Origin: an uncultured Chloroflexia bacterium
GTDB lineage: Bacteria > Chloroflexota > Anaerolineae > Anaerolineales > UBA4823
Assembly (NCBI GenBank): GCA_963698765.1
Contig: CAVOSB010000026.1
Location: 10,833 to 74,832 of the forward strand
Direction of reading: 5' to 3'
Length of the DNA stretch: 64,000 bases
Below are positions 535 to 13,027 of the stretch, one piece after another (within the stretch, counting starts at the first letter, position 1; the number at the start of each line of letters is the position of its first letter). The notes under the pieces are model-generated. The model worked only from the letters and a program-made list of their open reading frames with translations. It searched no databases and was not told the DNA's origin. Made by a program: the position numbers and the translations under genes.

Positions 535-3499
535 ATGAACCTTGTTAGATCCCATCTAGCCCGACCTGGCACCAGGACAGCAGGCTTCGTTGTATTTTTT
601 GTGTTCTGCGTGTGTGCATTCTTCATGCTCGTTGAGACCGATGATGCAGCAGCTTTTCCGGACAGCAGTCCCCCACTGGAACAGCCCAGTTTGACCCAGC
701 AGCTGGACACACCCAGCGGAACCGAGCCGCTGGACGTGCCCAGCGTATATCCGCCTCCGGAAATCAGCATCTCGGATATCACCGTCAGCGAAGGGGACAG
801 CGGCATCATCCAGGCTATCTTCTCGATCCTGCGCTCCGGGTACCTGGGCAGCATCTCGGCTATCGGTTTTACAACTGCAGACGGCAGCGCAGTCCAACCC
901 AGCGACTACGCCAGCCAGTCGGGTACGCTGGTCTTCGAGCCGAATGTGGCCAGCCTGACCGTGACCGTGGATGTAAACGGTGATACCCTGTCGGAAGCGG
1001 ATGAAAACTTCTTCCTGGACCTGGGCGATCCGCTGTTTGCCGAGATCATCGACGCCCAGGCGCAGTGCACGATCACCAATGACGACCCGCAGCCTGGGAT
1101 AACCATCGACGATGCGACACTCTCGGAAGGCGACAGCGGGACTGCAGCACTCTCATTTACGGTCCACCTGGATGCCGCAAGCGGGCAGACGGTCAGCGTT
1201 GACTTTTCTACTGCAAACGGCACGGCTGTCCAACCCGGCGATTACCTGTCCGCTTCCGGAACCGTCACTTTTATCCCTGGAGAGACTGCGGAGACCATCC
1301 AGGTCAACATCGTTGGAGATATTCTGGACGAAGCTGACGAGACTTTCCTGGTGGACCTGGCGAACCCGCTTAACGCCACGCTCACAGACAACCAGGCGCT
1401 CGGCACAATCAACGACGACGACCTACCAGCGGAGATCACGATCGCAGACACAACCGTCACGGAAGGCGACAGCGGGACGGTGAGCGCTTCCTTCACGGTG
1501 GCTCTCAACACCCCCAGCGGGAAAACCGTCAGTGTGGAGTATTCCACTGCCGACGACACAGCCACACAGCCCGACGACTACCAACCCGCCTCCGGGACGC
1601 TCACCTTCATCCCGGGTGATGTTTCTGAGAGCATTACAATCGATGTAGCCGGTGATACTCTCACCGAAGGCGATGAGGTATTCCCGGTTAACCTGACCAA
1701 CCCGACGAACGGCACAATCGCAGACAACCAGGCTGTCGGCACGATCAGCGATGACGACCAGCTGCCAGAAATGACGATCAGCGATGCCACAGCCACCGAA
1801 GGGGACAGCGGTACGACCAGTGTTTCCTTCCTGGTGACTCTGAGCGCCTCCAGCAGCAAGACAGTCAGCGTCACCTATGCCACCGGCGACAACACGGCCA
1901 GCCAACCGGCCGACTACCAGCTAACAACCGGCACGCTTACTTTTGTACCGGGCGACATGGCAGAGCAAGTGCGGGTCAATATCGTTGGCGATACGATGGA
2001 CGAGGACGATGAGACCTTCCTGGTCGACCTGTCAGGTCCGGTGAACGCCACCCTGGCGGACGACCAGGCATTGGGGACGATCACGGATGACGACCCGCCG
2101 CCGGAGATCACGATCAGCGATACCACCGCCACCGAAGGTGACAGCGGTACGACCAGTGTTTCCTTCCTGGTGACTCTGAGCGCTTCCAGCAGCAAGACAG
2201 TCAGCGTAACCTATGCCACCGGCTACAACACGGCCAGCCAACCGGCCGACTATCAACAAACAACCGGCACGCTTACTTTTGTCCCGGGCGACAGAGCAGA
2301 GCAAGTGCGGGTCAATATCGCCGGCGATACGATAGATGAGGACGATGAGACCTTCCTGGTGGACCTGGCAGATCCGGTGAACGCCACCCTTGCGGACGAC
2401 CAGGCATTGGGGACGATCATAGATGACGACCCACCGCCTGGAATCCGGATCGCAGACCTGACGGTTGCAGAGGGCAGCAGCGGAACGACAACCGCATCTT
2501 TCACAGTCACCCTCAACTCCGCCAGCGGTAAAACCGTAACTGTCGATTATGCAGCCGCCGACGACACCGCCACCCAGCCCGCCGACTACCTTTCTGCCTC
2601 GGGAACCCTCACTTTTCTGCCAGGAGATGTCTCAGAGAATATCAACGTTGACATCGTCGGGGATATTATTGACGAAAACGATGAGACCTTCGTGGTGAAC
2701 CTGTCGAATCCCGAGCAACGGCCGGATTGCAGACAACCAGGCGCTCGCGACGATCAGCGACGACGACCTGCCGCCAGGCATATCGATCGCAGACACAGCG
2801 ATCACCGAAGGGAACAGCGGGACGACTGCTGCGACGTTCATCGTTTCACTGAGCACAGCGAGCAGCAAGACGGTCAGGGTGAATTACGCCAGCGCCAACG
2901 GCTCAGCCATCCAACCCGCCGATTACCAGCCTGGGTCGGCCCTGGTCACATTCAACCCCGGAGAGGTATCGAAGAATATTCAAATTAAACGTCGTGGGGG
3001 ACACCCTGGATGAAATCGACGAGACCTTCCTGGTCAACCTTAGCAACCCGCTGAACGGCAGCCTGCAGGACAGCCAGGGAACCGGAACGATCACGGATGA
3101 AGACCTGCCTCCCAATATGTCGATTGAAGACGTGACTGTCACTGACGGCGTGACTTCGAACGTGCTGGCGACATTTGTGATCCGGTTAGATGCCCCCAGC
3201 GGGAAGCAGATCACGGTGAACTTCGCCACCCAGGACGACAGCGCGATTGCACCGCAGGACTACCTGGCTGCCACGGGCCAGGCGACGATCAACCCCGGAC
3301 AGACACAGTTTTCGATTACGGTGACTGTCATCGGTACGTTAGGCAACGAGCCAGCTGAAAGTTTCTTTGTGAATTTGAGCGGGGCTGTGAATGCCAACCT
3401 GGTCGATAACCAGGCAATTGGAACTACCTGTAGAATTACCTGGTCTTTCTTCCAATTGTGCTCAATTCCAATAGCGGACACTGGTATCATCCACCGTAA
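535..3499 (+). CDS. Secreted/surface Calx-beta repeat protein (8 domains; frameshifted near 2716, 2985 and 3430)
   Basis: N-terminal hydrophobic segment; eight ~112-aa repeats of type ISD.TV.EGDSG...DY....GTLTF.PG...I.GD..DE.DETF.V.L..P.NA.L.D.QA.GTI.DDD; an alternative frame ends NYLVFLPIVLN...HPP*. Confidence 0.85.
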
Positions 3500-3575
3500 A
3501 CCGGACATGATACCGGTGTGGATCGATCCACAATCGCTGCACCGGTGGGTGTTAAAAAGGGCGACCTGAAAGGAC

Positions 3576-3611
3576 TAGAAGCTAAACTTCTTCTTAGAAG
3601 TTTAGCTTCTA
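3576..3611. repeat. REP-like hairpin family A (TAGAAGCTAAACTTCT-N4-AGAAGTTTAGCTTCTA)
   Basis: Perfect 16-bp inverted repeat between convergent genes; five copies in the window. Confidence 0.9.
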
Positions 3612-4022
3612 TATTCGCTTGTATCCAGCAACAGGCGCCGGTCGGGGGTCAATTCCACCTTGAGCTCGCGAATCGGCTGGTCGGCGGGGCCGTTGAGCAG
3701 GCTGCCGTCCTGGGTGAAGCGCGAGCCGTGACAGGGGCAGGCATAGCCATCGTTCTCTGATGCCAGGATGCAGCCCAGGTGCGGGCAAACCAGGCTCAAC
3801 GCCCGGTAACCGCTCCCTGTCGACAGGAGCACGGCCTGGGCTTCCTCAACCAGCGTGCTGGAGCCGGGTGGGTACTGGCTGGCAGGACCCAGGTCGAAGC
3901 GCGTCTGGGCAGGTGGGTCGGCTGGTAGCTCAAGAAGCGCCCCAGGCCGAGGAAATTCCGAGCAGCCCGCTCGCACCCAGCAGGCCTTTTCCGAGCCAGC
4001 TTAGAAAATCACGCCGGTTCAT
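3602..4022 (-). CDS. Rieske 2Fe-2S protein with TAT signal (Rieske/cytochrome b complex subunit)
   Basis: CPHLGC and CPCHGS motifs; MNRRDFL twin-arginine start at 4022 in a shifted frame. Confidence 0.9.
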
Positions 4023-4049
4023 CTTGGAGCTTTGCTTCATTGCATCGCC

Positions 4050-5290
4050 TCAGCGCTCGACAGCATGGCATTCATGGCAGTACCTGGATTCTGCTGATCG
4101 ACCTGCTGCTGGCAGTCGCTGCCCATCACCGGTTTGAATGAGAAGCGCTCGCCAGTCGCTTTGCCGAACAGCTCGTAGCTGCCGTCATCCAGCAGGCGAG
4201 TGTTCCACAACGGCTCGCCCTGGCTGGGTGACCAGGATGCTATCCCCGACCTGCAGATCGATGACCGGGTTGAGGAAAGCCAGGCGCATCGCCAGCTCGT
4301 CCTGGCGTTGGATGCTGGCGGTGAGTGGGAGCTCATCCAGCGTGCCGTGGCAGGTAAGGCACTGGACGTATTGGATCTCCTTCTTGTGGCTGTATAGGTT
4401 CCCGTCACCCATGGCTTCCTGGCGCGTGTGGCAGTCGATGCAGTCCAGGGTCCATTCGCAGCGTGTGAACTGGGCTATGGGCTGGTAATAATCGTGCATG
4501 CGGTCGGCCGGGTCGTCGCTGCGATGGACGAATTCCATGCTCCGCAGGTCGTAGTTGCCGCGGTTATGGCAGGTGTTGCACTGCGTATAAGGCATCGCAA
4601 GGGTCAGGTCGTGAACCTGCTGCTCCGCATCCAGACCGGCTGTCCTGGTATGGCAGGCAGAGCAGCCGGTGAAGCGGTAGGAATCCGGGCCGTCCAGTGG
4701 TTCAGACCACAGGTGGCAGTTCAGGCAGTTCTCGGCAAAACTGCAGCACAGCAGGCGAGCTTTCCTGGCCTGGATCGAAGCTTTTAACTCCGGCAGCGCC
4801 AGCTCGTTGATCCATGCGGTAAGCTTTCACCGCCTGGACGCCGTAACGGGCTTTCAGATCGGGCTGGGCACCAAAGGTGAAGCGCATCTGGGCGATGGCG
4901 CCGGCGTAGGTGGCCTGGATGCCGGTTAGCACGCGCTGGATATGATCACGATCCAATTCGGTGGTTCCGCTGTGACAGTCACTCCCACCACATGATGCTT
5001 CAACCACCGACAGGTCGGAAGGGTTCGCTCCGCCGCGGATGCTGCTGTGAGCCAGGTCAGCGTCGAGAGCCAGCCGCTCTCCGCCGTGACAGCGCACGCA
5101 GCCGAAGGTCTGTACCGGCGTGGGCCGGGCTGATCTCCGGCAGGTCGCCGTGGCAGGTCAGGCAGTATTCGATCTCACCGGTCAGGGTCGGAGTCAGCGG
5201 GACGGGCGCCGGTGAACGGCTCTCGACGAACCAGGCCAGGAGCAGGGCAGCCAGCAGCAAAGCTGATGCCAGGACGGCGAGCGCTCTCAT
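4050..5290 (-). CDS. Membrane-anchored multiheme cytochrome c (~9 hemes; frameshifted)
   Basis: Across frames: CLTCH, CVRCH, CGGSDCH (atypical), CLNCH, CSACH, CNTCH, CIDCH, CLTCH, CHECH; N-terminal TM helix. Confidence 0.85.
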
Positions 5291-6313
5291 CGCAGCGCCA
5301 TCAGGGTCAAAATTAGGATCGCGGATCCGAGCAGGGCCACCGAGATGCTAGCCAGCCGGTTACCGGTTGGGAACCAGCGACCCAGCTCGCGCTGGCTGGG
5401 CGACCGGAAGCGCGTACGGCAGGAGGGCCAGCCACAGCAGGACGAACACGGGCAGGGCGACTCCCCAGATGAACGGATTTTTGAAACGCAAGAGCTGCTG
5501 CACCCACAGGAAGAACCAGGGCGCCCGTCCTTCTGCGGCAGACATACCATCCGGGCTGATAGGCTGGTCTATGGGTGCCGGGAAGAGGGCGGAAACGATC
5601 ACCAGCAGGGCAGCGCACAGGAACGAGGCCAGGATTTCCCGCCGCACCAGCTCATTGCGGCTGATGCGCGTGTGGTCCTGGCGGTGTTCAGGCGGCGGCA
5701 GGGCGATGCCGCCGTCGCGGCGGACGCGGAAGATGTGCCAGATACCGATCAACACCAACGGGAGAATCAATCCAAAGATGTGCCAGGCATAGAAGCGCAC
5801 CAGGGTAGCCGGGCCGGGCTGGCTGCCCCCCACCAGCATCCCGTAGAGCACATTTCCCAGCAGCGGGATGGAGCGCAGCAGGTTGGTGCCTGCCACCAGC
5901 GCCCAGCGAATGCCTTCGTCCCAGCGCAGGACGTAGCCGGTGAAATCGAGAAACAGGCACAGCACCAGCAATCCCAGTCCGAGCAGGTAATTGAAGCTGC
6001 GCGGCCGGGCGTAAGCCCCGGTGAAGACTACACGCAATAAATGCAGGATGGTGACGACAACCAGGGCCTGCGCAGCCCAATAATGCATGTTGCGAATAAA
6101 ACCGCCAAACGGGACCAGGTAGGTGATGGTTTGAACCGAAAGGGCGGCTTTGGAGGGCTCGGGGACGTAGTAAAAGAGCTCAACGGCGCCGGTCAGGATC
6201 AGCACCAGGCACAGGAACACTGCCACTCCACCGGCTCCCAGCGTGTAGCGCCAGCGTGCCTGGGCGGCAGGGATGGTGGGAGGGTGTAGGTGGTGAAAGA
6301 AAGACGGGCGCAC
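5287..6313 (-). CDS. Cytochrome b (b6-like N-terminal domain fused to a subunit IV-like C-terminal part)
   Basis: RNMHYWAAQ...LHLLRV and FYAWH...WHIFRV heme b ligand pairs, TGYVLRWD, APWFFLW at the Qo-motif position. Confidence 0.9.
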
Positions 6314-6353
6314 GTGCTGAATTATATTCTAGAGTGGGAGGGAGTTAATAATT

Positions 6354-6389
6354 TAGAAGCTAAACTTCTAGGTAGAAGTTTAGCTTCTA
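6354..6389. repeat. REP-like hairpin family A
   Basis: TAGAAGCTAAACTTCT-AGGT-AGAAGTTTAGCTTCTA. Confidence 0.9.
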
Positions 6390-6406
6390 AGATACTCAAT
6401 TTGTGA

Positions 6407-7207
6407 TTAATCTCCAGTCGGCTGGCTGGCGGGGACAGCGGAGGCCTCCGCCACCTGCGCTTCGACTTCGTCTTCCCAGTGCGCTTCTTCTTTCAGCTTC
6501 TCGTTGTACCACTTTTCGTGGTGGGCGCGGGCATACCAGGCGGAGACCTTACCGGAGAACATGGAGAAGAAGGCTTCCTTTTCTTCGGGGAAAACTGCTC
6601 CCATGTAGACATGGATCATCAATCCGGCCACGATGGCGAATACGGACATCCAATGGATGGGTTGGGCAATCTGTTTCAGAATGGGCGGAAAGACCGTTCT
6701 GAAGGTCATAACGATCCCACTTAGCATGATCCCAATGGTTGCGAGTATGACCACGTACATGTAGGCTTTCTGCCCGGCATTGTATGCGTCCTGGGGCGGA
6801 AGCTCCTTGTCTTTCATGAAACCCAGCATCTGCAGCGGCTTGATCTTGAGCCATTCGATGTCGTCCTTATCCAGCAGCATGCGGTGCGAGGCGAAAGGCA
6901 CGAAGTAGCGGCGGAAACCGATCAGGATGTTGAAGGTCAAAACGAAAATCCAGATCAACCCCACGGTGTAGTGAAAGCGGATCAGGTTAGCAGAACCGCC
7001 GAAGATATTGCGAAAAAGCTCCTGCAGCCAGAGCGGGCTGAGACCCAAGGCGGGAGATGAAAGGATGGCAATGCCGGTTGGAAAAAGCATCAGCCAGCAG
7101 GCCACGTTGAACCAGTGGGTGAGGATATTGGCCAGGTTGTGCTTCTTGTACTTCTTCTCGCGCAGCCGCCGGCGTTCTTCCAGAGGTATACTCTTATATC
7201 GGCTCAT
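6407..7207 (-). CDS. FdnI/PhsC-type di-heme cytochrome b membrane anchor
   Basis: Four TM helices with THW, RFHY, PIHW and IHVYM histidines; YNAGQK motif; C-terminal WYARAHH.KWY. Confidence 0.85.
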   Translation of the reverse strand: MSRYKSIPLEERRRLREKKYKKHNLANILTHWFNVACWLMLFPTGIAILSSPALGLSPLWLQELFRNIFGGSANLIRFHYTVGLIWIFVLTFNILIGFRRYFVPFASHRMLLDKDDIEWLKIKPLQMLGFMKDKELPPQDAYNAGQKAYMYVVILATIGIMLSGIVMTFRTVFPPILKQIAQPIHWMSVFAIVAGLMIHVYMGAVFPEEKEAFFSMFSGKVSAWYARAHHEKWYNEKLKEEAHWEDEVEAQVAEASAVPASQPTGD

Positions 7208-7211
7208 CGCA

Positions 7212-7970
7212 TCACTCCTCAAATTCCGATTCACCCTGAACCAACTGCTTGGTGAAATAGACTGCCTGCACCAGGAAGGCCCCACCTACTGCAGCGGCCA
7301 TGAGCGGTACAGCCACTTTTTTCCAGCCAGCCTGGGACAGCGTGTATTCGGGCGGCCGGGGCAGGGTCTTGTCCGGCAGTACCAGCGGATCGGTAGCACC
7401 GGCGTAGTTGATGTAGTAAATATTCGGATCGGTGTCCACATTTCCGTCTTCAAAATCCAGGCGCAGCACGGTGGAGGCGGTTTTCAATGCTTGCGAGACC
7501 TCGGAATCCGGGTCATTCAAGTCTCCGAACAGGCGTGAACCGCCCAGGCAGGTGGCGACGCAGGCCGGCTGCAGGCCGACCTCCACGCGCTGGATGCAGC
7601 CGTTGCATTTATCAACCACACCGCGCTCTTTATCCAGGTAGCGCGCGTCGTAGGGGCAGGCCTCCACGCAGTAGCCGCAGCCGATGCAGGCTTCCTGGTC
7701 TACCAGCACCAAGCCATTCTCCTGGTCCTTGAAGGTCGCACGGCTGACGCAGACATCCACGCAGGGTGGGTTCTCGCAATGCATGCAGTTATAAGGGATG
7801 AAGGTGCGGGTCAAATTCGGAAACTCACCCTGGATTTCAGGCGTGTAGACCCAGATGCGCGAATCCGTCATTGGGACAGAGTTTTCAACGCTGCAGGCCA
7901 CCAGGCAAGCCCGGCAGTCGATGCAGCGCGCAATGTCAATCACAAAACCGTATTTCTTCTTAGTTGCCAT
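7212..7970 (-). CDS. 4x[4Fe-4S] electron-transfer subunit (PsrB/PhsB/DmsB family) with C-terminal TM helix
   Basis: CIDCRACLVAC, CMHCENPPCVDVC, CIGCGYCVEACP, KCNGC...PACVATC. Confidence 0.92.
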   Translation of the reverse strand: MATKKKYGFVIDIARCIDCRACLVACSVENSVPMTDSRIWVYTPEIQGEFPNLTRTFIPYNCMHCENPPCVDVCVSRATFKDQENGLVLVDQEACIGCGYCVEACPYDARYLDKERGVVDKCNGCIQRVEVGLQPACVATCLGGSRLFGDLNDPDSEVSQALKTASTVLRLDFEDGNVDTDPNIYYINYAGATDPLVLPDKTLPRPPEYTLSQAGWKKVAVPLMAAAVGGAFLVQAVYFTKQLVQGESEFEE

Positions 7971-7980
7971 AGTCAACCCT

Positions 7981-10164
7981 TCAAGCCTTCTTGACCGTCA
8001 CAAAGGTCTGGCTGAGCGCCTGCCCGCCGCTGATCGGGTCGGTATAGGTCACATGCAGGACCGAGTTGCTGACACCGTTCGCAAAGGCAGTGGTCAATCC
8101 CTTGGAGAGATGGCCGTAACCCGGGGTCAGGTAAACGCAATCGTCGCGGATAGCCTTGGTGACCAGTACCTGGACCTGCACCTTGCCGATCTCACTGGCG
8201 GCTTCCACCCAATCGCCGTCCACCAGGCCGCGGGCAGCGGCTGCTGCCGGGCTCATCCATAGTCTCGGTTGATCCTCATATTTATGCAGCAGCTGGTTGT
8301 TCTGCGTGCCCATCTGGGTGTGCTGCCCGACTTTACCGGTGAGCAGGTAAAAGGTATCGGGCTTGGGCAGAGGAGGCTCTTCCCAGTGCGGCCAGGGTGA
8401 GAAACCTGCTTTTTCGAGCGTTGCGCTGAAGATCTCGATCTTACCGGTGGGAGTGTTGAACAGGATTTCTTCGCTCTCCGGTTTTACGACAGCCGGTACC
8501 AGGTAGCCCTTATAGCGCAGGGCTTCGAAATCCAGCCCTAAAGGCTCCAGCTGCTGTTCGATGTAATCGACTTCGTCCTCATATTGGAAGTAATCACCCA
8601 ATCCGAGGCGCTCGCCGAGCTGCTTGTAAATCCACAACGCAGAACGCGACTCCCCCAGCGGCTCGATCACCGGCTGACGCAAGAAAATCTTGCCTTCAAC
8701 CACAGATAACGGGTCAAAGCGCTCCAGGTAGGTGGATTCCGGCAGGATCACATCGGAGAACCAGGCAGTATCATTGATGATGGCGTCCACCGTGACAATG
8801 AAATCCATCTTGCCAAAGGCTTCTAATGTACGCTGGCGGTCGGGCAGTGAGAGCACGGGGTTCTGGCGGGAGATGAACCAGCCGTGCGCCTGGTAGGGCT
8901 CACCGGTCAGGATGGCGTCGCGCATTTCCTGGAACACGCCCAGCTTGAGCGGCACCAGCGGGTATTTCCAGGGCACGCCGTCCAGCCGCATGGCAGAGAT
9001 GCGCGGGTAAGGGGGCTGAGGAGGCTTGCCCAGCGTGATCCCGCTGGCTTCGGGGCTCTCGGCAGCCAGGCAGCCGCCCTGTCTCACCACCGCACCGGTT
9101 ATCGCATCCAGGGTGGCGATGGCGCGTTCGGTCTGGAAAGAATTAATAAAGTTCGATGTACGCCAACCCGGGTGCGCCAGGGCGTGTTTTCCGGCCGCAG
9201 CAAATTCGCGGGCGATGCGCTCGATCGTGGCGGCAGGCACCCCGGTAATCCCCTCCGCCCACTGCGGCGTGTACTCTTTCATGGCATCCGGAAGGTCCAG
9301 GCAGCCGACCACGTACTTCTGGACAAAATCGCAGTCGCCGATCTGGTTGGTGACGATCACATTGATCATCGCCAGCAGGAAAGCAGCGTCGGTGCCCGGG
9401 CGGATTGGTATCCACTCTGTAGATTTGGCAGCCGTCTTGGTGAAGCGCGGGTCGAGTGAGACCAGCTTGGCGCCCCGGGAGATGGCTTCCACCAATTGAG
9501 AGGTCTCGGAGGTGGAGATGGCTTCCATCATGTTGCGCCCGGTCAACAAGACGTACTGGACGTCATCATAATTCCTGGACGGCTCTTCAACACCGTATGT
9601 CAGCAGGAAGGCGGTCACCATGGCGTTGAAGCACAGGCTGCGCTGGGTGCCGTAGTTGGGAGAGCCGAAGCCGTTCAGCAGGTTCTCAAATTGCACCTGG
9701 GAAAGGCTGTGGGTGGAAGAGAAGACCATCGCTTCCGGGCCGTACCTGGACTTGATATCCAGCATCTTCTCTGCCGTGAAATCCAGGGCTTCTTCCCAAC
9801 CGACCTGGCGGAACAGCCCTTCGCCACGCTTGCCTACCCGGATCATGGGCGAAAGCACGCGGTCGGGATCGTAGGCGTGCATCAACCCCGACTGGCCGCG
9901 TGCGCATAGTTTCCCGCGAGTGCGGGTGATCGGGATTGCCGTCCAGCTTCACCACGCGGTCGTCGACAACTTTAGCCCGCACTCCGCAGCGCCACACGCA
10001 CATCTCGCAAAGGGTGTGAATGTAGCCGTCATCGGTGAGCGGGACCTTGCCGCCGTAAGCAGCCCTGGCCAGGCGCGGAGGAACACGCGGCTGGCAGCCG
10101 CAGCTCCCACTCCCAGGCCGCCGAGCCTGATGAAATCGTGTCTAGATATCACGTTTTGTTTCAT
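7981..10164 (-). CDS. Molybdopterin oxidoreductase catalytic subunit, polysulfide/thiosulfate reductase (PsrA/PhsA) family; frameshifted at the N-terminus
   Basis: TAT-like leader, CEMCVWRCG...KLCARG 4Fe-4S motif, GSPNYGTQRSLC with the putative Cys Mo ligand, PIRPGTD, SDVILPESTYLER. Confidence 0.85.
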
Positions 10165-10173
10165 TTTTTTAAC

Positions 10174-10731
10174 TTATTCACTCGTTTTATTCTTGCGCTG
10201 CAAGCCTGCCCGATCGATCAGGTAGAACAACAGCAATGACATCGAAGCAAAAAGCAGCACAGCCAGGAATGGGCTCAGGTTCCAAAGGTCGGGGATGACC
10301 ACATTGCCCACTTTTTCCAGGCGTTCGATGGGAGGGAATATTTGCTGGTAAGTCAATCCGAACAGGGCTGCACCAACCAGGAAACCCAGGAAACCAGGGA
10401 TCACGTAATCGAGCTTGCCTTCGCCGCCACCGGCGGCGCAGGTGCCCGGTCAGAGACCGACGAGGGCCATGCCCACACCGAAAATCAAGCCTCCTAACAG
10501 GTTGCCCACCACGTAAGTGGCAGGGACATTGGGGAATGTGATCAGTCCCAGCCCACGCAGCGTGTACAGGCCCGCCATGGAGACCACCAGGGCGGTCATA
10601 ATGAATTTAAGGACGGCCATATCGGTGAAGCGGAACACGTTCACGATCTTGCTATAGCGCGTCAGGCCGGCCTTGTTGAGGGAAAACCCAAAAAAGACGC
10701 CCAGGATCAGTGCGAGGATATAGTTCGTCAT
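10174..10731 (-). CDS. YeeE/YedE sulfur-compound transporter, second half; predicted selenoprotein (in-frame TGA at 10450-10452)
   Basis: The ORF ending GMALVGL* continues in the same frame as PGTCAAGGGEGKLDYVIPGFLG; the TGA occupies the Cys of the family GxCPGT motif. Confidence 0.8.
10422..10438 (-). promoter_or_regulatory. Putative bacterial SECIS element
   Basis: CGCCGCC-GGU-GGCGGCG 7-bp stem starting 11 nt after the UGA, with GU in the apical loop. Confidence 0.65.
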
Positions 10732-10733
10732 GG

Positions 10734-11270
10734 TTAATATCTCCTGCGGTAGACGAGGATCGTAGTGAGAATGCCGGACATGAACATGCCGGCCATGAAC
10801 AGGAAGGCTGCCGGCGCCAGCAGCATGCCGCCGGAGATAACCAGCCCACTGGTGCACCCGCCGGCGATGCCAGCCCCGTACTCCAGGATGATGGAACCCA
10901 GGAAGACCAGCAGCCAGCGCTTCCACAGCTGCGCCCCGAAGATCGTTTTCCACTGGGCGTCGTCGGTGTTCCAGCGCAGCTTCCAGGTGCGGCTGGAGAG
11001 CGCCCCCAGCCCACCGCCCAGGATGATCCCCACGAGCAGGACCACGCCCCAGGTGATGCCAGCCGGCATGATGAAGTTAAAATACATCACGTTGAAGACC
11101 TGCGGTGCCAGAGCTTTACCGATCAGGCCTGCCAGGTTTTCAAAGGCGCCCGAGGCGCCCAGCAAGCTGTCGCTCAGCCAGACAGCCAGCACCCCAACGA
11201 TGCCCAGCAGGGTGCCGGCGATATAAGGCGACCATAACTCTTTCCGAACTCCCTGAACAAGATTACTCAT
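10734..11270 (-). CDS. YeeE/YedE sulfur-compound transporter, first half
   Basis: WSPYIAG, LGASG and GAGIAGGCTSG motifs. Confidence 0.88.
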   Translation of the reverse strand: MSNLVQGVRKELWSPYIAGTLLGIVGVLAVWLSDSLLGASGAFENLAGLIGKALAPQVFNVMYFNFIMPAGITWGVVLLVGIILGGGLGALSSRTWKLRWNTDDAQWKTIFGAQLWKRWLLVFLGSIILEYGAGIAGGCTSGLVISGGMLLAPAAFLFMAGMFMSGILTTILVYRRRY

Positions 11271-11301
11271 TTGTCCATCTCCTGATTTATCAATTCAATG
11301 A

Positions 11302-11335
11302 AGACCTCACAGGTTTAAGAAAACCTGTGAGGTCT
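11302..11335. repeat. REP-like hairpin family B (AGACCTCACAGGTTT-N4-AAACCTGTGAGGTCT)
   Basis: Perfect 15-bp inverted repeat in an intergenic space. Confidence 0.9.
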
Positions 11336-11347
11336 CGAAATGGAAAT

Positions 11348-12291
11348 TTAATCTCCAGACATCGCCAGCAGCAGCTCGCGTGTCGAACGGTCCAGGTTGC
11401 GCACGCGTGTGACCAGCTCGGGATCCAGCCGCGACAGGCTGTGGAACAGCTCCGAGGCGGCATCAGGATTTTCGAGCAAGCGCTGAAGGGCGTGCAAGCC
11501 CTTTGGATTCAAGCGGGCGATTTGAGGCAGCAAGGCCGCCACTTCCGCCGGCACACCTTCGATCGCCGGCAGCTCTTCTACCGTCAGTGCAGGGGTCTCG
11601 GCTTTCTTGCGGAAGATGGGCAGATCCCCGCGCTTGCGTTCGTTATAAACTGCGAAAGCACCACCGCCCAGGACAAGTGCAACGATCAACGTGGCGGCGA
11701 TCACATTGCCAACATTGACCGAGCGCACACCGGTGACCATTTCATCATAGCGCTGCTGGTAGTCGACCACGTCATCTCCTCCGGTCACCAGGGAAGTCGA
11801 GCCTTCCATGGGCGCGGTATCCTGGACTGCAGTTTCCTGGTCTGCGCTCTGAGGGTGGATTTACCTGTTTCGCCGGGGTCTGACCCGGCGGGCTGTTCAG
11901 GTGCGCCCCCCTCGCCGACGGTGATACCGAGCGTTGTGGCATACACCTGCGCCAGCTCACCCATGTCTTCCGGGTGGCAGGTCTGGCAGGCAGCCTGTAT
12001 ATCGGAGAGCGGGGGGACCATACCGGAATGGGCAGCGGCTTCATCCATGCTCTGGCTGTTCCCGGCGTGGCAGATATAACAGAAATCACCGAAAGCATGC
12101 GATTTATGCCAGCCTGTGCCGTCGGCGTTCACCGGATCTTTACCCTGTATTTCGTGGCAGTTTTTACATGATGAGGCCTGCGACCCGCACTGCGCCTGCG
12201 CGCTGGCGCCGGGATAGAGCAGGACTGCTGCCGACAACAGCAGGGCGCCGGTACAGACTAAGAGAAAAATCTGATTTTTTGAAAAGGCCAT
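11348..12291 (-). CDS. Triheme cytochrome c with signal peptide, C-terminal TM anchor and cytoplasmic tail (frameshifted near 11800)
   Basis: CKNCH, CYICH, CQTCH; TM segment VIAATLIVALVLGGGAFAVY. Confidence 0.8.
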
Positions 12292-12370
12292 CGATACCCT
12301 CCCGGATTGTGGGTTGTGCTGGAAAGCCTGCTTCTGCCGCTGTTTCCAGCCTCCTAGAAGCATTAAAACC

Positions 12371-12739
12371 TTATGTATTATCCGAAGTGATCCCCACCAG
12401 CTCTGATTCCATCAGCCCGGCACGATAGGCGATCCGGCTGCGGAGTACTTCCATCAGCAAGTCAAGTGCCTCGATCAAACGCCGGTCTGTCAGGCTGTAT
12501 TCCACGCTGGGTCCCTGGCGAACAGTGCTGACCAGGCCGCTTTCACGCAGTATTTTCAGGTGCCGAGAGGTGGTGGGCTGGCTTAATCCCAATTCAGCAG
12601 CCAGGTCTTTAACGCACTGCGACCTGGCTGAAAGGGCGTAGAGCAGCATGATGCGGTTGGCATCCGCCAGTGCTGAGCACATGTTGGCGTGCAGCTGGAT
12701 CACTTCCTCATGCAGGTTCGGATTATTCATCATCACCAT
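12371..12739 (-). CDS. ArsR/SmtB family transcriptional regulator
   Basis: ALADANRIMLL...LGLSQPTTSRHLKILRESGLV...G..VEYSL. Confidence 0.92.
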   Translation of the reverse strand: MVMMNNPNLHEEVIQLHANMCSALADANRIMLLYALSARSQCVKDLAAELGLSQPTTSRHLKILRESGLVSTVRQGPSVEYSLTDRRLIEALDLLMEVLRSRIAYRAGLMESELVGITSDNT

Positions 12740-12893
12740 ACCTTGAATTCCACTCAGATGTCACTTTCTATTAACAGGATTTTCCCGCCCGGTAATGAAT
12801 ACCGGCCTAGATATTTCAGGTTCCTTCGATATATGCGTATAATGACATGAACGGATTTATCTATATGATAGTTGACTGGTTTTCAAGCTGATA

Positions 12894-12907
12894 GTGATAT
12901 TTGTCAC
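12894..12907. promoter_or_regulatory. GTGA-N6-TCAC palindrome (CRP/FNR- or Rex-like site)
   Basis: GTGATATTTGTCAC in the divergent promoter region upstream of arsR; near-identical site at 54895. Confidence 0.45.
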
Positions 12908-13027
12908 ATATTTTTCACACAATCATAATAAACTTGTCGACGGAGAAGGACCGCTCGGATGATGGATTTCTGAGGTAAAATGCCCCATGCTCAACCATGG
13001 GCGATCACATTTCTACCTGATTGGAAG

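Follow-up and report, generated by a model that had tools for sequence, protein, structure and literature searches.

A conserved Anaerolineales locus pairing a Psr/Phs-type molybdoenzyme with a Rieske/cytochrome b/nonaheme cytochrome module

Gene content of the locus

We analyzed a 64,000-nucleotide stretch of DNA from an uncultured member of the Anaerolineales (genome G000, contig C26, positions 10833 to 74832; hereafter the window, in whose own coordinates gene positions are given), which carries ten genes that pair a molybdenum (Mo) enzyme of the polysulfide/thiosulfate reductase (Psr/Phs) type with a Rieske/cytochrome b complex. All ten lie on the minus strand and run from 12739 to 3602 in the order proposed by an initial annotation made from the sequence alone; open reading frame positions and family scans bear out the ten co-directional genes, and Pfam and NCBIfam scans are consistent with every gene label. 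We divide the genes into module A (arsR, triheme cytochrome, two YeeE halves, PsrA/PhsA-type enzyme, Fe-S subunit, and quinone-reactive anchor) and module B (APWF-type cytochrome b, nonaheme cytochrome c, and Rieske protein). Synteny counts place this ten-gene arrangement far beyond chance. Every part belongs to a known family, and the combination is a widespread, uncharacterized system, probably a variant of sulfur-compound respiration. The features of the locus are as follows.

12893..12908, minus strand: Crp/Fnr-type box TGTGA-N6-TCAC, found by eye, with resembling boxes upstream of arsR in many relatives
12371..12739, minus strand: ArsR/SmtB-family regulator (PF01022 and NF033788 over cut-off)
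11348..12291, minus strand: triheme cytochrome c with an N-terminal signal or transmembrane segment and one further transmembrane segment; frameshift near 11850
11302..11335, no strand: dispersed palindrome resembling repetitive extragenic palindromes, with 45 arm matches across the genome
10734..11270, minus strand: YeeE/YedE (Sulf_transp) half 1 (PF04143, 49.6 bits, cut-off 27)
10174..10731, minus strand: YeeE/YedE half 2 with predicted selenocysteine; in-frame TGA at 10450-10452 and a hairpin resembling a selenocysteine insertion sequence (SECIS) at 10422-10438
7981..10164, minus strand: PsrA/PhsA-type Mo-bis-pyranopterin guanine dinucleotide (Mo-bisPGD) subunit with a leader of twin-arginine translocation (Tat) type, FS0 motif, and Cys ligand; two compensating frameshifts near 10070 and 9910
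7212..7970, minus strand: four-cluster Fe-S subunit of the TtrB/NrfC/PsrB type with C-terminal anchor (family scans)
6407..7207, minus strand: FdnI/PhsC-type diheme cytochrome b anchor, aligned with E. coli FdnI at four His and a YNAGQK stretch
6353..6390, no strand: 36-nucleotide dispersed palindrome between modules A and B, a possible terminator, with 20 arm matches in the genome
6321..6348, minus strand: promoter-like site TTAACT-16-TATAAT at a leaderless distance from the cytochrome b start
5287..6313, minus strand: long cytochrome b (ExtP+ExtQ-like fusion) with four heme His and Qo motif APWF; frameshift near 5390
4050..5290, minus strand: membrane-anchored nonaheme cytochrome c (eight CxxCH and one CX4CH) resembling the N-terminal two thirds of Geobacter ExtM; four frameshifts
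3602..4040, minus strand: Rieske [2Fe-2S] protein with Tat-type anchor and S-F signature CPCHGSRF; two frameshifts near the N terminus
3576..3611, no strand: second copy of the 36-nucleotide palindrome, at the cluster end (repeat comparison)

Three-frame translation and tblastn against intact relatives located about 10 frameshifts across five of these genes (one in the triheme cytochrome, two in psrA, one in cytochrome b, four in the nonaheme cytochrome, and two in the Rieske gene). The homologous genes are mostly intact in relatives, and nrfA elsewhere in the same genome is likewise split into four pieces; the frameshifts are therefore likely to be assembly errors. Decay of the bc genes in this strain might alternatively be responsible, given that 7 of the 10 frameshifts sit in bc genes. 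Owing to these frameshifts, we analyzed intact relatives beside the window fragments. A large tandem-repeat protein, Calx-beta-like by eye, is encoded at 535-3569 on the plus strand and is frameshifted too.

The initial annotation took the Mo subunit to be phsA/psrA-like, and the enzyme is, judged from its scores and motifs, of the Psr/Phs type. Among solved structures the best relative of the window PsrA fragment is Thermus PsrA (388 bits), and a PsrA profile scored 544 bits against Thermus PsrA, 287 against the next chain, and 187 against ArrA. An intact relative scored 595 against the NCBIfam model for PhsA, 301 for Dms, 163 for ArrA, and 101 for TtrA; both this relative and the window fragment (527) fall short of the 694 cut-off of the PhsA equivalog NF012032, and the Mo subunit is about 34% identical to PhsA. 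The motif TQRSLCF, with Cys as Mo ligand, is found in 68 of 70 relatives, and the RR of the Tat leader in 64 of 70 (RH in the window); the FS0 motif and ABC gene order are those of the Psr/Phs group as described in the available text of PMC2500031. In a 19-row tree of Mo subunits, from which six Anaerolineae rows were dropped and which held no ArrA, TtrA, SrrA, Wolinella PsrA, or Thermus PsrA rows, the Anaerolineae enzymes are a separate clade (support 100) that falls together with PhsA and with a Chondrinema enzyme resembling Psr (support 85-90) and away from Dms and Fdh. When the anchor of the window is aligned with E. coli FdnI, the four heme His and the YNAGQK stretch all match; in FdnI this stretch marks a quinone site on the cytoplasmic side.

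In a comparison with persulfide-sensing regulators of the SqrR/BigR type, the ArsR protein scores below cut-off against both the BigR model (47, cut-off 155) and the TsoR model (66, cut-off 115), and the single Cys in its helix 1 is matched in 29 of 49 relatives. Upstream of arsR, the box at 12893-12908 and an AT-rich palindrome at about 12825-12845 recur by eye in many relatives and are probably bound by a global regulator and by ArsR itself. The triheme cytochrome has an invariant additional Cys ahead of heme 1; a search of solved structures gave no relative for it. The second yeeE gene contains an in-frame TGA, overlooked in the initial annotation, at which 30 matched copies (loci L001-L040) have TGA in 27 cases and TGC in 3. 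A SECIS-like hairpin with G in its loop follows 14 nucleotides after the TGA, and the genome has selA over cut-off and tRNA-Sec. With a TGA aligned to Cys, selenocysteine machinery, and a hairpin, this half is predicted to be a bacterial selenoprotein; standard gene calling would end it at 93 residues. A YeeE selenoprotein family with motif GUxSG has already been catalogued (PMC13188914, partial text), and the YeeE pair also adjoins a Psr-like operon in Chondrinema.

According to the portions available of PMC2500031 and PMC13047784, Psr and Phs substrates are not readable from sequence, and the hints here diverge: the Mo subunit shares with Thermus PsrA a His that PhsA does not have, whereas the anchor is PhsC-like. 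The initial annotation also considered a selenium or tellurium oxyanion as substrate, as for SrrA-like selenite reductase, or a role in sulfur disproportionation; we consider these possibilities, other oxyanions included, very improbable. An oxyanion substrate would fit the inseparability by sequence alone of Psr, Phs, and Srr (documented for the first two in the sources just cited), the selenocysteine of YeeE, and the altered selenite and tellurite reduction on loss of Geobacter extI (as far as the available text of that work goes). ArrA and TtrA models, however, score far below PhsA, and the Mo-subunit family, with 2337 proteins at E<=1e-100, is so abundant that a common substrate is more plausible. 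Disproportionation would be in keeping with longer relatives of the nonaheme cytochrome in Desulfocapsa sulfexigens, but the disproportionators covered in the available text of PMC13490349 rely on Apr and Sat. Our search found no aprA match in 137 family genomes (a search without positive control; sat was not searched), and dsrA occurs in one of five genomes checked, with dsrAB at G083:C12:66176-68334 in a cluster-bearing genome. The classical route to disproportionation is therefore unsupported.

In module B, the gene initially labeled b6-like encodes a long cytochrome b in which the b6 part is fused to subunit IV. Its heme ligands H77, H91, H178, and H193 are invariant in 47 sequences, and these four heme-b His, along with the CxHLGC and CPCH boxes of the Rieske protein, mark a Rieske/cytochrome b complex. 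It departs from canonical bc1 and b6f complexes in having a nonaheme partner where those have cytochrome c1 or f, no heme-ci Cys (GAGG where CxGG is expected), and no PEWY or PDWY; the Qo motif is APWF instead of PEWY in 88 of 90 sequences. Rieske signatures were readable in 83 of 85 sequences and are all S-F or S-Y, types with potentials of about +260 mV or more (Kao and Hunte, PMC4122944, partial text), and the Rieske centre is predicted to lie near +260 mV.

The estimate of about nine hemes in the multiheme cytochrome held, with the refinement that eight CxxCH motifs are joined by one CX4CH, identically in intact relatives. Outside the heme motifs, five His, two Met, and two Cys are conserved in 97-100% of 62 sequences and would suffice to supply each of the nine hemes with a ligand. 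The two Cys (C276 and C391), invariant in all 62, lie near lost His positions of distant relatives but at least one residue off. The pair also occurs in a paralogous family without psr linkage, so a disulfide between them is as likely as heme ligation; for the same reason we rejected the pair as a mark of psr-linked copies. An AlphaFold model (mean predicted local distance difference test score 66, heme regions <50) is too poor to judge Cys ligation of the kind found in the sulfur enzymes TsdA, SoxA, and MccSep. Foldseek, VIA-align, and a profile search of solved chains gave no match to the nonaheme cytochrome, which does not by itself point to a new fold. Its partnership with cytochrome b is supported by the distant relative P0127, in which an ExtM-like multiheme domain is fused behind a cytochrome b domain.

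Several other quinone-linked modules were seen. In a paralogous module not beside psr (L147:7600-10700 and L148-L151), cytochrome b is split into two genes flanking the nonaheme and Rieske genes. The window's genome has three further Rieske/cytochrome b sets (C16:24278-25482, C16:53446-54803, and C29:315114-315966), one adjoining a heterodisulfide-reductase-like Fe-S gene and one succinate dehydrogenase. The same genome encodes four multiheme cytochromes (4, 9, 5, and 5 CxxCH), a QrcD/HmcC-like membrane subunit, and an Fe-S subunit at G000:C37:218800-227100 (L133), by its gene content a second quinone-linked multiheme system. A clade G' of long cytochromes b, encoded in large and conserved operons to which no function is assigned, has been described (PMC5600118, partial text), and these operons may include the module B type.

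Conservation and transcription of the pairing

We surveyed 137 family genomes for a cytochrome b homologue (>=55% identity) and the Mo subunit (E<=1e-100, one copy per genome). Cytochrome b was found in 57 and the Mo subunit in 55; both were present in 48 genomes, one only in 16 (9 and 7), and neither in 73. Where both were present, they lay within 3.5 kb on the same strand in 27 genomes, far apart on one contig in 7, and on separate contigs in 14. Because these genomes are kin and not independent, the counts show conservation and not a tested correlation. A phylum sample of 301 genomes added a second family, in which the nonaheme cytochrome and Mo enzyme occur in the same 5 of 20 genomes and are always adjacent, and contained no genome outside the order with both genes. 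Among 80 loci found by the nonaheme cytochrome alone, the psr module lies upstream in 54, is absent in 10, and could not be placed in 16 whose contigs are too short; 79 of the 80 record titles are Chloroflexota, mostly Anaerolineae, which supports a Chloroflexota origin. Within the order, the nonaheme cytochrome is present in 40 of 251 sampled genomes from 10 families. The adjacency in 27 of 48 genomes, the 54 of 80 loci, and the second family together confirm synteny of the bc genes with the Mo enzyme in relatives. Neither of the outcomes named at the outset as fatal to the initial proposal, independent transcription of the bc genes without synteny or a Mo enzyme outside the sulfur/selenium clades, was found in full.

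The link also outlasts changes in the genes between the modules. In 95 distinct cytochrome b loci, some hand-picked for being adjacent or apart, a psr anchor gene precedes cytochrome b in 72 (16 of the window's FdnI type and 56 of HybB/HmcC type). In a FastTree phylogeny of 58 PsrA sequences, each taken from a locus with cytochrome b and the nonaheme cytochrome as well, the anchor type switches at least three times while module B is retained. That the genes between psrA and the bc module were exchanged and the bc module kept speaks for selection acting to hold modules A and B together.

Transcription of the two modules appears to vary. In the window they are separated by a 93-nucleotide gap (6313-6407) that holds the 36-nucleotide palindrome and the TTAACT-16-TATAAT site, whose -10 box ends 7 nucleotides ahead of the cytochrome b start codon. 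Across 63 adjacent loci with a clean cytochrome b start, a -10-like box lies 5-9 nucleotides before that start in 15 (shuffles: mean 1.65, maximum 5) and a terminator-like hairpin lies in the gap in 16, whereas the gap is <=22 nucleotides in 9. The idea that the ten genes form one unit is thus partly supported, by the short gaps, and is opposed by the promoter-like sites and hairpins; according to lineage, module B is probably reached by read-through as well as transcribed on its own. We rejected the 36-nucleotide palindromes flanking module B as mobile-element ends, as they are copies of a genome-wide repeat.

These observations bear on whether the modules are simply independent neighbors that stay together through common descent or joint regulation under anaerobic conditions. 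The promoter-like site and terminator-like hairpins between the modules, their separation in 21 of 48 genomes, and the relatedness of the genomes are as this explanation would have it. It does not account as readily for co-occurrence that persists when the modules are apart (48 of the 64 genomes with either have both), for adjacency that outlives repeated anchor swaps and spans several families, or for the gaps of <=22 nucleotides, and we regard mere neighborhood as quite unlikely.

Individual loci show further arrangements. In genome G009 the nonaheme gene stays with module A while cytochrome b and Rieske lie elsewhere, and in G072 a second nonaheme copy lies behind module A. Where module B stands alone, a ywiC-like gene precedes cytochrome b in 8 of 13 loci (L021, L027, L029, L032, L036, L039, L047, and L063) and a dsrE-like gene precedes in 3 of 13; in L050 both genes lie between modules A and B. 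One locus has a 12-heme cytochrome gene between the modules (L101:5629-6894), and rhodanese and Sqr-like genes lie near some loci.

Possible roles of the two modules in energy conservation

We tentatively favor, at somewhat less than even confidence, a two-branch respiration of sulfur compounds in which both branches would oxidize menaquinol and would be coupled through the quinone pool and the proton motive force (pmf). Module A, presumably on the outer side of the membrane given its Tat leader, would reduce a low-potential S-S acceptor, polysulfide or thiosulfate. Its FdnI-type anchor would oxidize menaquinol on the cytoplasmic side, with the membrane potential pulling electrons outward, as in Salmonella PhsABC. 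Module A would have to spend pmf because menaquinol, at -75 mV (PMC6195509, partial text), lies well above polysulfide (about -270 mV) and thiosulfate (about -400 mV; PMC2500031 and PMC6682613, partial texts). Module B would oxidize menaquinol by a Q-cycle and pass electrons through the Rieske protein and nonaheme cytochrome to a higher-potential acceptor encountered in the same surroundings. Tetrathionate (+198 mV; PMC6195509, partial text) or other polythionates are our first guess, by analogy with the Qcr-fed reductases of Campylobacter jejuni, with the nonaheme cytochrome possibly the reductase, and a caa3 oxidase or NrfA might serve where present. Module B would thus generate the pmf that module A spends, the coupling not being by wire: with a Rieske potential predicted at about +260 mV, module B could not feed polysulfide or thiosulfate reduction. 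Of the Q-cycle coupling suggested in the initial annotation, an indirect form through the quinone pool and pmf is possible, while direct coupling is disfavored by that predicted potential. Were module B to run in reverse, we estimate for a pmf of 180-200 mV that menaquinone could receive electrons through it only if the donor lay below about +100 mV.

Support for the two-branch reading comes from the co-occurrence and adjacency of the modules, the anchor switches, the Psr/Phs assignment of the Mo enzyme, neighbors that handle sulfur (the YeeE pair, DsrE, rhodanese, and Sqr-like genes), and the Geobacter and Campylobacter parallels described below. The distribution of candidate electron sinks lends no support to a generic partner for module B. 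COX1 is present in 36 of 48 cluster genomes and 67 of 89 others (75% in each), and NrfA in 19 of 48 and 58 of 89, respectively. Three genomes that are 93-97% complete (G073, G128, and G129) gave no COX1, NrfA, or NosZ match, and weak NosZ matches proved to be cupredoxin domains. We therefore set aside a generic oxidase, NrfA, or NosZ as the partner of module B for want of co-occurrence.

These counts also weigh on a sulfide-oxidizing chain, in which the Psr-type enzyme would oxidize sulfide to polysulfide and reduce menaquinone through its anchor, and module B would re-oxidize menaquinol by a Q-cycle and pass electrons through the nonaheme cytochrome to oxygen, nitrite, or an extracellular acceptor. 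All steps would be downhill (-270 to -75 to about +260 mV), gene order follows the path, and the window's genome has both a caa3-type oxidase and nrfA. W. succinogenes Psr reportedly catalyzes sulfide oxidation. Sulfide is an electron donor for this organism (PMC6682613, partial text). However, COX1 is not enriched in cluster genomes and NrfA is rarer in them, 9 of 48 have neither at the thresholds used (G053 having a marginal COX1 match), the three other cytochrome b paralogues in the window's genome could re-oxidize quinol, and the Geobacter parallel described below is reductive. We consider this chain doubtful. The two-branch reading is favored over it because studied family members and the Geobacter parallel are reductive and because no link to generic sinks was found.

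A direct wire between the modules seems less likely still. Module B would here lift menaquinol electrons to low potential, by pmf or bifurcation, and the nonaheme and triheme cytochromes would deliver them to PsrAB. Geobacter ExtMNOPQS may play an analogous role for MccSep, and a similar complex lies beside two unrelated polysulfide reductases; the canonical Qo glutamate is missing in 88 of 90 sequences; the nonaheme cytochrome stays with module A in G009 and has a second copy behind it in G072; and its invariant Cys lie near His positions of distant relatives. Against such a wire, all 83 readable Rieske signatures predict +260 mV or more, and PsrAB is always accompanied by its own quinone-reactive anchor, so that a second electron source is unneeded.

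The two-branch reading itself faces several difficulties. A separate promoter-like site precedes module B in 15 of 63 adjacent loci, the modules are apart in 21 of 48 genomes, and the genomes surveyed are kin. The three sink-less genomes are fragmented (230-650 contigs), and the window's genome does have a caa3-type oxidase and nrfA. The acceptor of module B is a guess, as the cluster encodes neither TtrA nor TsdA, and the extra Cys pair of the nonaheme cytochrome may be a plain disulfide. Spending pmf on thiosulfate would gain little if a high-potential acceptor were present. Finally, APWY-type complexes have been suggested to run in reverse, none of them being characterized (PMC4122944, partial text).

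Anaerolineales are a common lineage, usually regarded as fermenters, and the cluster links an APWY-like complex with a sulfur Mo enzyme in them. There is only a partial explanation of how menaquinol drives polysulfide or thiosulfate reduction in heterotrophs that lack hydrogen and formate. As of a 2014 survey, no Rieske/cytochrome b complex of the APWY type had been characterized (PMC4122944, partial text). Our literature search, outside which most subscription journals lay, returned no paper combining Anaerolineae or Chloroflexota with a polysulfide/thiosulfate reductase, Rieske protein, multiheme cytochrome, and YeeE.

Comparison with known systems

With Thermus thermophilus PsrABC (PDB 2vpw) and Salmonella PhsABC, the Anaerolineae system shares the Mo-bisPGD subunit, Tat leader, Cys ligand, the Arg and His of the active-site region of the Thermus enzyme, and ABC order. 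The anchor of the window is FdnI/PhsC-type and those of its relatives FdnI-type or HybB/HmcC-type; the Anaerolineae system differs in its own Mo clade and in adding the triheme cytochrome, the selenocysteine-containing YeeE pair, and the Rieske/cytochrome b module. Compared with the YeeE/YedE (TsuA) thiosulfate transporter family, the YeeE pair has the same PF04143 halves and a selenocysteine/Cys pair at the conserved Cys, but is split over two genes, has the motif G-x-U-P-G rather than GUxSG, and lies in a cluster without yeeD or tusA.

Module B has the A-P-W Qo motif, a medium-high to high potential Rieske protein, and several copies per genome in common with the APWY clade, an uncharacterized group with Chloroflexi among its hosts for which reverse operation has been suggested (Kao and Hunte 2014, PMC4122944, partial text). 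It differs in its fourth Qo residue, F and not Y in 88 of 90 sequences, in its nonaheme partner, and in its link to a sulfur Mo enzyme, of which the available text of PMC4122944 makes no mention.

The resemblance of the bc part to Geobacter ext/cbc clusters, proposed in the initial annotation, was borne out: ExtP (210 bits), ExtM (141 bits), and ExtQ (33 bits) are the best or only NCBIfam matches of module B, though all fall below their cut-offs (290, 800, and 150, respectively). In Geobacter, extMNOPQS forms one cluster with a rhodanese-like gene and extKL (PMC5877670, partial text), and MccSep (ExtKL) is described as a polysulfide reductase that S0 respiration requires and for which no electron donor has been identified (bioRxiv 10.1101/2025.11.18.688581, partial text). 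The available portion of that preprint mentions neither ExtM, Rieske proteins, nor Chloroflexota. Relative to Geobacter extHIJKLMNOPQS (Cbc6 being CbcMNOPQR), the Anaerolineales cluster has a homologous cytochrome b (ExtP+ExtQ), Rieske protein, and multiheme cytochrome (matching ExtM 17-391 of 599); both lie beside a polysulfide reductase and a sulfur-handling protein, and both clusters include a selenoprotein. The Anaerolineales reductase, however, is a Mo enzyme with its own anchor, whereas that of Geobacter is a heme selenoenzyme; ExtP and ExtQ are fused and ExtM is shortened to nine hemes. Among recurrent neighbor families we found no ExtH, ExtI, ExtN, ExtS, porin, or ExtKL-like gene (whole genomes were not searched). 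It would appear that related bc complexes adjoin two unrelated sulfur reductases. A more speculative proposal, which we hold to be rather unlikely, is that sulfur respiration has an energy module of its own in the ExtMOPQ-type (APWY/APWF) complexes, which would have been recruited on two occasions (with MccSep in Geobacter and with a Psr-type Mo enzyme in Anaerolineales) and would supply driving force or low-potential electrons for polysulfide reduction by menaquinol, the nonaheme cytochrome being perhaps a Cys-ligated S-S reductase. On this proposal, Anaerolineales would be sulfur respirers that are abundant but have been overlooked. The Geobacter parallel makes the idea testable in a genetically tractable organism.

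A further parallel is offered by Campylobacter jejuni, in which a menaquinol Rieske/cytochrome b complex has been shown to feed Nap and Tor electrogenically and suggested to feed TsdA (PMC6195509, partial text). The same kind of complex thus serves anaerobic reductases of moderate potential in that organism. Its reductases, as described in the same portion of that source, have positive potentials and no quinol dehydrogenase of their own, whereas the Anaerolineales Mo enzyme is anchored and its acceptor is predicted to be strongly negative.

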